In this document: positions 33,001 to 36,000 of the stretch, piece after piece | Layout of the letters: every line of letters begins with the position of its first letter | Numbering within the stretch: the stretch's first letter is position 1 | Origin: Candidatus Nealsonbacteria bacterium | GTDB taxonomy: Bacteria; Patescibacteriota; Minisyncoccia; Minisyncoccales; MHMH01 | Reading direction: 5' to 3' | DNA: 64,000 nucleotides | Assembly (NCBI GenBank): GCA_043813805.1 | Contig: JBDRKR010000020.1 | Coordinates: 3,130 to 67,129, forward strand | Program-made: the position numbers

Positions 33001-36000
33001 ATAGACCTGACCGCTGCCCCGAAAGCTGAGAGAGGCCCCTTCATAATCTCAAAACCGATATTAGATGCCGATAAAATAATCAATGTTCCTGTTTTGAAAA
33101 CACATGAGGTGACCGGCGTGACTATTTCTTTGAAAAATATGATGGGGATTATCCCGGGACACTTAAAGACGGATTTGCATAAAATAGGTTTAGCGGATAG
33201 TCTGGTTAGACTGGCGCAAATCATAAAACCGCATTTGAATATTGTCGATGCCGGTGTCTGCCAGGAGGGAAGAGGGCCTCTCAACGGAACTCCGAAAAAT
33301 CTTGGGTTGCTCGTTGCCGGCGATAATCAGGTGGCGGTTGATGCTGTTTGTTGCAAAATTATGGGAATAAGTCCGCGGATGATACAGCACATAAGATTGG
33401 CTGAAAAAGCCGGTTTAGGTTCGACAGATGATATTGATATCGCCGGTTTTAAGGAAGAATATGTCGATAAGTTTAACCTGCCCATAACATACAAAAATTG
33501 GATTTTGAGATTCGGCATGCAGCTTTCAGATAGCGGATTCAAGAGATTTATTGAGAAAAATAACAAAATCGAGATAAATTCGAATAAATGTTCAAGGTGC
33601 GGTCTTTGCGTCAAAACTTGTCCAGTCGGAGCCATGACCATGACCACAAGCGGCCCGGCGGTGGATTACAAAAAATGTATTTTCTGCTTATGCTGTTACG
33701 AAACCTGTTTGCCTGACGCGATAAAAATAAAAGAACCTTTGGGATGGCTTCTCAATTTTATAAGAAAAATAGGAGGATTTAACTAAAAAACATTTTTATG
33801 AGCCCCGTTAGAAGTTTTTGGCAGAAAAAATTAGAGAAATTTTTTCTGTTTACTGATGACGGGGAAAATATCATTAAAATAAGTTTGTCTGAAATTAGCC
33901 TTTGGCTATATAACGACAACTTCTAACGGGGTGAGAGTCGCTTTGTTTGACTACAGTTTATTTTACGAATCTCTGGGCTTGGCTAATTTGATGGGCGCTT
34001 TGAAAGCCAAGAACATTGATTATAAGTTGTTTATTATTTCCGAAGAGAAAGATATTGTAGAGAGCGTTAGGCAATTCAATCCCGACTTGCTTAGTTTTTC
34101 AGTCTGTACGGGCATACATCATGTCAGTTTCGGACTGGCCAGATATCTTCGCAAGTATGTGCGCGTTCTCACCGTATTTGGCGGGCCGCACGTCACCTTA
34201 TTCCCGGAGGAAAGCATTAAAGAAGATTGCGTTGATATCATCTGCCGGGGAGACGGGGAGGAGGCTTTAATTGAGCTCCTGGAAGCCATTGAAAATAAAA
34301 AGGATTATTCCCAAATTAAGAATCTCTGGGTAAAAAAAGACGGCGAGATTTTCAGGAACGAAATCAGGCCGCTTGTAGAGAATTTGGATTCTCTTCCCTT
34401 GCCCGACAGGTCGCAGTATTTGAAATATCCCATTATCAGAGATTTGCCATTGAAAAGATTCATTACCGGATACGGCTGCCCGTTCCAATGCAGTTTTTGC
34501 TACAATGCCATGTTCTTAAAGGAGGTGTATAAAGGAAAGGGGAACTATTTGAGAAAAAAAAGCGTCGACAGGGTTTTTCTGGAAATAAAAGAGGTTCAGA
34601 AGATTTCTACGGTTAAAAGAATTCATTTTCACGATGATAATTTTAATTTTTACCAAGAGTGGTTCAAAGAATTTTGCGAACGTTACCCTAAAGAAATAGG
34701 AATTCCGTGGTCTTGTACTGTGAGGGTGGATAATATGCTTAATGAAGAAGTGGTAAAAATGATGAAAACGGCGGGTTGCGTCGGAGTAACCTACGGTTTG
34801 GAAACGCATAACGAAAACGTACGCAATAAGATTTTGAACAAGCATTTAAAGAATGAAGACTTTGAAAAAGCTTCCAAACTGTTTAAAAAATATAAGATAA
34901 AACACATTGCCGCCATAATGTTAAATTTGCCCGGAGAAACCATTAAAGACGCCTTTGCAACGCTGCATTTTGCCAGAAAATTAAAGAGCGATATTGTCAG
35001 AACCGCTCTTTACAATATGGCTAAAAAACAACCCATCATAGATTGGCTGATAGAAAATAATTATATCGATCGTGCTCCCGAAATAGACAATTTTAATCCC
35101 ACCAGACTGGAAGACGTGGCGATTCATTCCCCCGATATGGAAAGAATAATCAGATTATCGGCATTTTTTAATGTAATGCTTAAATTTCCTTTTTTGGAAA
35201 GCTTTTTCAGGTTTTTATCCTTTTTCCCCATCGGAAGGTTCGGCAGGGGCAGAATGTACGACAGCTACCTGGAGATGAGGTTTATGGGCGTTCCTCCTCT
35301 GCAGGGGTTCAGATATTTTCTGAAAGTAAAACAGGGATTTAAAGCTTTTCAAAATTTAAGGTAAAAGTATGCCAGAAACAGAACGTCAAAAAAGAATGAT
35401 CGATTCTTACGATCAATTATATAAGGGAAAAAATTTCCACCAAATTTGGGAAGGCGAGATCAGCTTGAGCTATAAGGTGCCCAAATACGCATCTTTATTC
35501 GCCGAATATTTTCGGGATAAAAACCTCACCATTTTAGAGGTGGGAGCCGGTGACGGTTATCTGACCAAATTGATTATGGAAAAATTAAACTGCAGAAAAT
35601 ATGTTGCCACTGAAATATCGGACGAAGGAGTCAGAAGGCTGAAAGAAAAAGGCATTGAAGCATTTAAGATGGATGCCGAAAAATTAGAATTTGAAGATAA
35701 TTCTTTTGATGTTGTCTGCTGTTTTGATACCATGCATCACGCCTATGATCCCAGCAAAATGGCCTCAGAGATGATAAGGGTGGCCAGGAAGGAGGTTTTT
35801 TTGATTGAGGCCAACGGCTCATGCTTAATCAGGAAGTTGCTTGAAAAAACCCGCAGGTATAAAACGGTGCACGAGTCATCTTATACGCCAAAACAGTATG
35901 CTTCTTTCTTTACCCGCCCCGAAATAAGAAAGATTTATTTTAAGCCGTTTTTGGCCGTTTTTCCCTTCACCCCGCTCATTTTGAAAAAACCGGCTATCTG

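Follow-up and report, generated by a model that had tools for sequence, protein, structure and literature searches.

In a 64,000-nt stretch of a Candidatus Nealsonbacteria genome (contig JBDRKR010000020.1; the whole stretch is referred to as the window), the gene of a B12-binding radical S-adenosylmethionine (SAM) protein is preceded, at positions 33798-33935, by a small element with fully complementary ends. The element runs into the GTG start codon of the gene and contains an open reading frame (ORF) of 42 codons. An earlier, sequence-only reading of the locus regarded this short frame as a selected upstream ORF (uORF) and also considered an RNA switch and a peptide product. The question raised by the locus is therefore how such a sequence came to lie on a start codon, and whether its reading frame is maintained for a function. 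Comparison with related genomes suggests that the element, termed copy B, is very probably a non-coding, internally deleted MITE (miniature inverted-repeat transposable element) of a start-codon-hijacking mini-element coding for a GIY-YIG nuclease.

Two insertions and their empty sites

Copy B comprises 129 bp (33803-33931, plus strand) and lies in the same orientation as the downstream gene. Its terminal inverted repeats (TIRs), CCCCGTTAGAAGTT on the left (33803-33816) and AACTTCTAACGGGG on the right (33918-33931), are complementary at 14 of 14 positions and are flanked by a target-site duplication (TSD) of TGAG. The left TSD copy (33799-33802) forms part of the old ATGAG, and the right one occupies 33932-33935, so that the region begins with ATGAG and continues behind the right TIR with TGAGAGTC. 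The final G of the element is the first base of the new GTG, which opens an ORF of 477 amino acids (33931-35364, plus strand). The 42-codon relic ORF (33798-33926, plus strand) starts at the original host ATG (33798-33800), receives the residues P-V-R-S from the left TIR and ends with N-F-TAA in the right TIR, the stop codon lying 4 nt upstream of the GTG; its product has no match in Pfam. Two internal features were recognized: an A6/T6 hairpin named H1 (33821-33849, arms 33821-33832 and 33838-33849), defined by its fold, by compensatory changes and by a match to the right end of the parent element described below, and an internal copy of the right-end octamer (TGACGGGG, 33857-33864), which could pair with the 5' CCCCGUUA instead of the TIR stem.

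A search of the window with the 14-nt ends returned only this pair and, with one mismatch, a second pair at 2331-2344 and 2446-2459, which delimits copy A. This copy also measures 129 bp (2331-2459, plus strand), and its TIRs are complementary at 13 of 14 positions. It carries a TGAA duplication (2327-2330 and 2460-2463), an old ATG at 2326, a regenerated GTG at 2459 and a 42-codon relic ORF (2326-2454) whose TAA again lies 4 nt before the GTG.

Removal of the element had been predicted to restore the original start codon, and the orthologues bear this out. Orthologues of the copy-B gene with 94, 82, and 79% identity (loci L120-L123) lack the element and read ...CATTTTTATGAGAGTCGC... or ...CATTTTTATGAGAGTCGCTTTATT..., corresponding to the predicted empty site ATGAGAGTC, in which the ATG is overlapped by the stop codon of the upstream gene (ATGA). 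Close homologues of the radical SAM protein have 476-477 amino acids, in agreement with the window ORF when counted from the GTG. At the junction of copy A, an orthologue of 79% identity reads ATGAGGATATTAATTACC / ...GATATGAGGATATTAATTACCGGC and is likewise an ATGA overlap without an element. Copies A and B are therefore insertions, with TIRs, duplication and empty sites.

The genes around the two copies deserve brief description. The radical SAM/SPASM gene upstream of copy B ends in this genome at a TAA 11 nt 5' of the old ATG (33784-33800), and in all four orthologous contigs (L120-L123, 1495-1504) its frame continues to the TGA that overlaps the ATG. Copy A precedes a gene of the GDP-mannose-dehydratase/epimerase family (2459-3415, plus strand), for which an identical NCBI protein of 324 amino acids is annotated from an in-frame ATG at 2441, inside the element; this start adds MQTSNG from the right TIR, and the orthologues have 318 amino acids. 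Exact-protein look-ups of the window genes returned no record.

The short family and its full-length relative

Short copies were collected by scanning one genome per species for two TIR cores 90-120 nt apart, which yielded at least 119 loci in about 65 assemblies. Almost all hosts are metagenome-assembled genomes (MAGs) of the candidate phyla radiation (CPR; Patescibacteria), and searches of viral contigs and of a plasmid collection returned none. The family thus has at least 127 copies, and the figures given here refer to the 127 short copies from the window and the genome loci among the matches listed, with gene starts called by simple ORF rules. Their lengths range from 116 to 145 bp, and multiples of three are not favored. 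In 102 of the 127 copies the flanks are identical over 4-5 bp; they comprise 16 different sequences, mostly of the T..A type (TNNA). The main subfamily, including copy B, has a conserved interior; copy B was aligned with 26 of its members. In subfamily 2 the hairpin lies on the opposite side, and the rarer lineage of copy A has just the extended ends in common with the others. Copies A and B, which had been taken for one sequence with diverged interiors, thus represent different subfamilies. Small size without transposase coding capacity, TIRs, a variable TSD of fixed length, dispersed copies, empty sites and ends common to a longer coding element identify the short family, as judged from its sequences, as MITE-type elements.

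The insertion sites are highly biased. Of the 127 copies, 72 sit exactly at the start codon of an ORF downstream, or 87 if the ORF criteria are relaxed, in one of two registers. In the first, ATGAA is followed by the element and by TGAA; since the element ends in G, the duplicated TGAx yields a new GTG start. In the second, the element is framed by two copies of TATG and the ATG itself is duplicated. Operon junctions with an ATGA overlap or a short gap are frequent among these sites, as are sites with a -10 box 6-9 nt 5' of the ATG, and 12 of the 43 copies of the GTG class contain an in-frame ATG. Behind regenerated starts, NCBIfam models match in full length from residue 1-8 for topA, nusA, metK, mreB, RNase J, atpG, and clpB, which indicates that the insertion is compatible with the expression of essential genes. 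The possibility that the hairpin brings a Shine-Dalgarno sequence close to the new start was rejected, because any such motif is found upstream at only 10 of the 72 start sites.

A second class of sites consists of promoters. Ten of the 55 non-start copies abut a canonical TTGACA-N17-TATAAT promoter (background 0.1%), namely L024 984-1099, L045 934-1062, L067 5312-5442, L028, L050, L053, L065, L117, L025, and L005. These copies are situated directly upstream of the promoter, and their 4-bp duplication (TTGA, CTTG, or TTTA) overlaps the -35 hexamer and thereby regenerates it. The bias extends to orientation: relative to the gene, the interiors point in one direction in 24:0, 6:0, and 3:0 cases within subfamilies and in 44:2 cases overall, and in 61 of 71 copies the sense strand has more A than T. 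Mere survivorship among insertions made at random was considered and rejected as a cause of the site preference. TGAR words at gene starts make up about 7% of the TGAR sites that do not interrupt a long ORF in the same loci; intergenic TGAR words outnumber those at starts 14:1 by a crude estimate, yet nearly all TGAR insertions are found at starts.

The same TIRs, CCCCGTTAGAA...TTCTAACGGGG, bound a longer, coding element. In a Jorgensenbacteria MAG (L020), a 282-bp element with a TGAA duplication occupies a start codon and contains a single ORF that extends from the host ATG to the TAA of the TIR. The product of 93 amino acids (MNPVRS-HWWYVYVL...WYIGST...KRILRHN...YCE...REKYLKSG...KNRLKFFFAHDF) carries a GIY-YIG domain (PF01541, E = 2e-17). 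At least 956 homologues exist; the best 120 are 68-100% identical and have lengths of 85-109 amino acids, and in their sources the homologues are named GIY-YIG nuclease family protein or putative endonuclease. Many start with MNPVRS/N and end with ..FFFAx(D/G)F. The closest solved structures are UPF0213 BH0048 and EF2693, and a group I intron endonuclease model gave a weak, sub-threshold match.

A scan of metagenomes for TIR cores 244-274 nt apart yielded at least 120 full-length loci with TIRs 266-296 bp apart; among the matches listed, the GIY-YIG ORF is intact in 61, or 56 after removal of duplicates. In 41 of these 56, the nuclease ORF ends with the TAA of the right TIR and thus 4 nt short of the regenerated start, and in nine its stop is a TGA or TAA provided by the duplication (GTGA-type overlap). 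In most cases the distance between the left end and the nuclease ATG is 14-29 nt, or this ATG is fused to that of the host; elements in the TATG register place it a few nucleotides behind a three-codon ORF, MPR-stop. A host gene starts exactly at the right junction of 25 intact elements, all in sense and none in antisense orientation, and a promoter is abutted by eight, again with none in antisense.

The short copies are connected to this parent through its right end. The left 26 nt of the main subfamily are the reverse complement of the parent right end, the right 36 nt of subfamily 2 equal the parent right end, and hairpin H1 is built from an inverted and a direct copy of a right-end segment. 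Derivation of the short-copy ends from the parent right end explains both H1 and the internal TAACGGGG in sense polarity.

The family inserts at the 5' boundary of host genes, mostly at the start codon and in part at the -35 box, with a 4-bp duplication and in sense to the host gene. In the mechanism proposed here, the nuclease frame of the parent, starting at or just inside the left repeat, would use the transcription and translation signals of the host; it stops at the TAA of the right repeat, 4 nt short of the regenerated start, and the host gene could then be translated by termination-reinitiation. The parent would thus keep its host alive, because its inverted repeats supply both the stop of the nuclease frame and the first base of a new start codon. 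Copy B would have lost the nuclease gene and may have been mobilized in trans by the nuclease.

Several unusual loci were encountered among the family members. The clpB start codon carries the same insertion in two MAGs (L054 7838-7969, L104 472-603), with intact TIRs and interiors that are about 30% diverged; this insertion looks old and vertically inherited. Matching changes in both TIRs occur at L076 2683-2810 and L003 1531-1665 (TCCCG..CGGGA and GAAACC..GGTTTC). A 228-bp element at L089 7096-7323 is a frameshifted remnant of the GIY-YIG gene, one element is nested inside another at L055 2256-2521, and a 29-nt TIR mini-palindrome replaces H1 at L036 1343-1371. Nested and miniature forms, which include arrays of short TIR units, also comprise the 293-bp pairs L159/L160 as well as free-standing versions of 45-81 nt with the ends CCCCGTTAGAAAT..ATTTCTAACGGGG; L038 2216-2277, L045 5174-5254, and L098 4855-4935 are among the miniature loci. 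An unrelated small GIY-YIG gene with 40% identity to the element nuclease and without these TIRs (L031 7155-7373, minus strand) sits between two tRNA-like fragments (GCGGGGT.GAG.AGTAGTA.CTCG...).

The relic reading frame and the RNA hairpin

The 42-codon ORFs of copies A and B are present as first described, and so is the stem formed by pairing of all 14 TIR positions at the GTG of copy B, since the centroid fold consists of the TIR stem including the G of the GTG. It had been argued that a shared M-x-P-V-(K/R)-S beginning, a shared N-F-stop ending and an identical length reveal selection for translation through the element. The shared residues exist. They are, however, simply TIR nucleotides read in that frame, and the number of codons is the same because both copies are 129 bp long. 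The accompanying remark that TIR nucleotides are conserved rather than a peptide core agrees with the present data, in which the shared residues are TIR-encoded and the interiors unrelated.

According to the uORF proposal, ribosomes would read through the short copies, unwind the stem, stop just ahead of the GTG, at a distance of 4 nt, and then reinitiate. The frame is uninterrupted over 42 codons in each window copy, and a permutation test suggested for this openness gave a probability of an open frame in shuffled interiors of 0.11 for copy A and 0.027 for copy B, against a family rate of about 11-16%. Within the GTG class, the frame from the old ATG reaches the TAA of the TIR in five of 43 copies and stops after 7-44 codons in the others; the interior is free of stops in this frame in seven of 43 copies (5/41 without the window copies), compared with about 11% as the background when other frames, strands, or classes are counted. 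Each of the two empty sites is a translationally coupled junction with an ATGA overlap, as would suit the proposal, but only one of nine copies at such overlaps is open, and this one is copy A. Every copy of the TATG class reads ATG CCC CGT TAG (MPR-stop), lengths show no bias toward multiples of three, essential genes follow copies with early stops, and orthologues lack the ORF altogether. The stop-and-restart geometry is also conserved in the coding parent. With interrupted frames and variable lengths across the family, the very findings that had been named as fatal to it, the idea of a selected regulatory uORF or leader peptide is refuted at the family level, and for the short copies themselves it is considered very improbable.

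Comparison with the parent instead indicates that the 42-codon ORF is a leftover of the parental frame and not a selected peptide: its TIR-encoded head and tail would have been joined across non-coding filler. The layout of a stop 4 nt before a start would be the means by which the parent keeps the host gene translated, surviving by chance in copies A and B. Of the earlier proposal of a relay of termination and reinitiation, the geometry is thus real and inherited from the coding parent, while the short copies show no sign of selection for it; such a relay may still operate in copies A and B. We infer that the radical SAM gene is translated from the GTG at 33931. Ribosomes that bind at the old ATG, open the TIR stem and stop 4 nt before this codon probably assist its use.

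The sequence-only reading had also mentioned, with less weight, that the 42-amino acid products might be substrates of the radical SAM enzymes, that is, precursors of ribosomally synthesized and post-translationally modified peptides. The position of copy B next to B12-radical SAM and SPASM-type genes is what suggested this idea. Copy A, by comparison, precedes an epimerase/dehydratase gene, and other family members precede topA, nusA, metK, and further genes. The orthologous clusters are devoid of the ORF, no Pfam domain is matched, and conservation is confined to residues encoded by the TIRs, the interiors being unrelated and mostly interrupted. A role as precursor peptide is accordingly hardly credible.

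The RNA itself could be the selected entity. A domesticated regulatory RNA might hide the start codon in the TIR stem and expose it by pairing with the internal UAACGGGG, or might serve as an RNase III processing site. The stem including the GTG is stable, copies A and B fold better than shuffled sequences (z = -3.6), H1 shows compensatory changes in nine of 11 pairs across the subfamily, and H3 covaries as well. The internal octamer has sense polarity (GGGG 45 vs CCCC 3), 94% of cells are paired with the 5' arm, and the alternative conformer was calculated to have -36.4 kcal/mol, compared with -48.3 kcal/mol, and to lie behind a barrier of about 10 kcal/mol. Transcripts of Correia elements provide a precedent for cleavage by RNase III (PMC10969869). 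However, both the octamer and H1 are accounted for by descent from the parent right end, and in subfamily 2 the hairpin is on the other side. The host genes are of all kinds and form no common regulon, orthologues function without the element, the accessibility of the start at equilibrium is independent of orientation, and an Rfam search of the element returned nothing at the gathering score and noise at E values up to 10. A regulatory role of this kind is thus regarded as improbable.

Mobilization and significance

It is conceivable, and proposed here with due reserve, that the parent of about 282 bp is an autonomous transposable element of a new class, whose sole protein is the 93-amino acid GIY-YIG nuclease, which homes directionally to gene 5' boundaries and of which the short copies are the MITEs. 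By homing to a start codon or a -35 box, such a parent would need neither a promoter nor a ribosome-binding site of its own.

Alternatively, this could be an ordinary MITE family moved by an unseen transposase of the DDE type, with the GIY-YIG gene as a passenger or selfish colonizer. TIRs combined with a fixed 4-bp TSD, mostly TNNA, are a classic signature of DDE enzymes, and a catalytic domain of 93 amino acids has no obvious DNA-binding domain attached. The piggyBac and IS1380 elements also have ends starting with CC(C) and 4-bp duplications of the T..A type, which may serve as a lead to such an enzyme; unlike in these systems, no DDE transposase with the present ends was found. No TIR pair 0.3-4 kb apart occurs in the 119 genome loci among the matches listed, and none was noticed in the 120 metagenome loci. 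Moreover, the nuclease ORF is integrated with both ends of the element: the right TIR contains its last codons and stop, and its start follows within 14-29 nt of the left end. Nuclease copies that have stayed intact are numerous, with a conservation of 68-100% identity. An unseen transposase is therefore judged rather unlikely. Known insertion sequence families (DDE, HUH, serine, tyrosine, DEDD) were rejected as well, because the only ORF of the full-length form is the GIY-YIG domain and no TIR pair at kilobase scale was present among the loci listed.

Several points weigh against deriving copy B from a GIY-YIG element that hijacks start codons. GIY-YIG enzymes are not known to make the 4-nt staggered cuts or to perform the strand transfer implied by the TSD, so that the nuclease may not be the mobilizing enzyme. 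The MITE interiors have only the ends in common with the parent, and the status of deletion derivative follows from these ends; the 64-kb window contains no full-length element. The short copies were gathered by exact-TIR patterns, to which a profile search added only seven further hits, and TIR conservation is thus partly a product of this collection. All data are sequences of MAGs and metagenome contigs. Most short copies end the ORF of the old ATG 40-110 nt before the new start and still precede essential genes, so that close termination-reinitiation cannot be the general route of host translation. Behind such copies, ribosomes might reach the start by being handed over across the base of the TIR hairpin, or on near-leaderless mRNA trimmed by RNase III. 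The orientation rule of the non-coding copies is matched by none of the properties compared: promoter-like sites number 18 in sense and 14 in antisense, with none in copies A and B; antisense terminators, found in 0 vs 8 of 72, were mostly junction artefacts; and the unpaired probability of the start codon at equilibrium is 0.276 in native copies and 0.272 after inversion of the interior, which is not significant. Termination at the main-family hairpin and a T-run is likewise a weak explanation.

In the open-access literature, whose coverage is incomplete, no description was found of this element, of MITEs in CPR bacteria or of GIY-YIG genes with TIRs and TSDs, and neither start codons nor orientation come up in a review of prokaryotic MITEs from 2024. 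Similarities exist to Correia/NEMIS, ERIC, and RUP elements, which also measure about 100-150 bp, have TIRs, a short TSD and many copies, and vary in presence between relatives. Correia/NEMIS elements of Neisseria are cotranscribed with their neighbors, and in the mRNA their TIRs pair to a long hairpin that is a substrate of RNase III (PMC10969869, PMC2649163). They differ by a TA duplication, a variable distance to genes, insertion in both orientations and the lack of a known coding parent; the present family, in contrast, occupies the start codon or -35 box in one orientation, rebuilds the start codon and has a full-length form coding for a GIY-YIG nuclease. Rickettsia palindromic elements are mobile palindromes of about 100-150 bp inside genes of a reduced genome, tolerated through kept reading frames (PMC10969869). 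While these are translated in frame within the host protein, the element described here stays outside by means of a stop and a new start. Integron attC sites were rejected on account of an opposite motif order (GTTAGAA...TTCTAAC vs R''(RYYYAAC)...R'(GTTRRRY)), variable 4-bp duplications and single insertions; REP/REPIN, REP/RAYT, and IS200/IS605-type (PATE) palindromes were rejected because true TIRs and TSDs are present.

With regard to its product, the parent resembles free-standing GIY-YIG homing endonuclease genes (phage T4 seg, I-TevI family) and UPF0213/YhbQ-type genes in having a GIY-YIG nuclease as its sole product. Genes of homing endonucleases move from allele to allele through double-strand-break repair; they lack TIRs and TSDs and encode a DNA-binding domain. 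The catalytic domain is present in the parent and lost in copy B; unlike homing endonuclease genes, the parent encodes 93 amino acids, is bounded by TIRs, has MITE derivatives and is found with variable 4-bp duplications at hundreds of unrelated sites rather than spreading through a single allele. With regard to its layout, a comparison can be drawn with mycobacterial interspersed repetitive units (MIRUs), small intergenic repeats of operons whose short ORFs touch the flanking stop and start codons and are read as keeping translational coupling. The stop 4 nt before the start, or the GTGA overlap, of the parent follows the same logic as MIRUs and ATGA-type coupling (reviewed in PMC12548453). 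Unlike the present family, MIRUs are tandem, minisatellite-like units without TIR and TSD, and the ORF of the short family copies is usually broken.

Other features of the window are listed for completeness. A second small repeat module (633-706, 1008-1080, and 1680-1709, with an inverted partial copy at 46634-46664) consists of a hairpin, GAAAGAGG..CCTCTTTC, a terminator-like CGCCTTTTGGGCG with a T-run and TGGTAGAAT a few nucleotides before an ATG; at 633-663, the 31 nt of its arm show 100% identity to 46634-46664. In the intergenic region behind an ORF ending at 46558, the word TTGACG is repeated three times in tandem (gttgacggttgttgacgggctgttgacgtcag, 46573-46597); the last letters of that ORF, CCCCGTTAAAC, form a partial word resembling the TIR. 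From about 16000 to 63600, the window forms one large cluster of sugar or polysaccharide type, in which methyltransferases, epimerases, and glycosyltransferases accompany some ten radical SAM genes of the B12-binding type that are paralogous to one another (repeat families D1-D6; for example 17650-19140, 30148-31671, 33931-35364, 50960-52312, and 62048-63583).

If the proposed parent is indeed autonomous, it would rank, at roughly 280 bp, about lowest in size among the self-contained mobile genes known in bacteria, and GIY-YIG nucleases would join the enzyme classes associated with TIR/TSD transposons. It would also represent a natural mobile element engineered for translational coupling. For annotation, this would mean that hundreds of CPR genes have wrongly assigned starts, as exemplified by the gene behind copy A, and that elements are the source of many "GIY-YIG nuclease family proteins" as well as of small hypothetical ORFs. 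The family would further constitute a natural experiment in which initiation of the non-Shine-Dalgarno or leaderless type is confronted with a 130-nt hairpin directly before essential start codons. In the gene-dense, reduced genomes of CPR/Patescibacteria, such elements would survive by parasitizing start codons instead of intergenic space.

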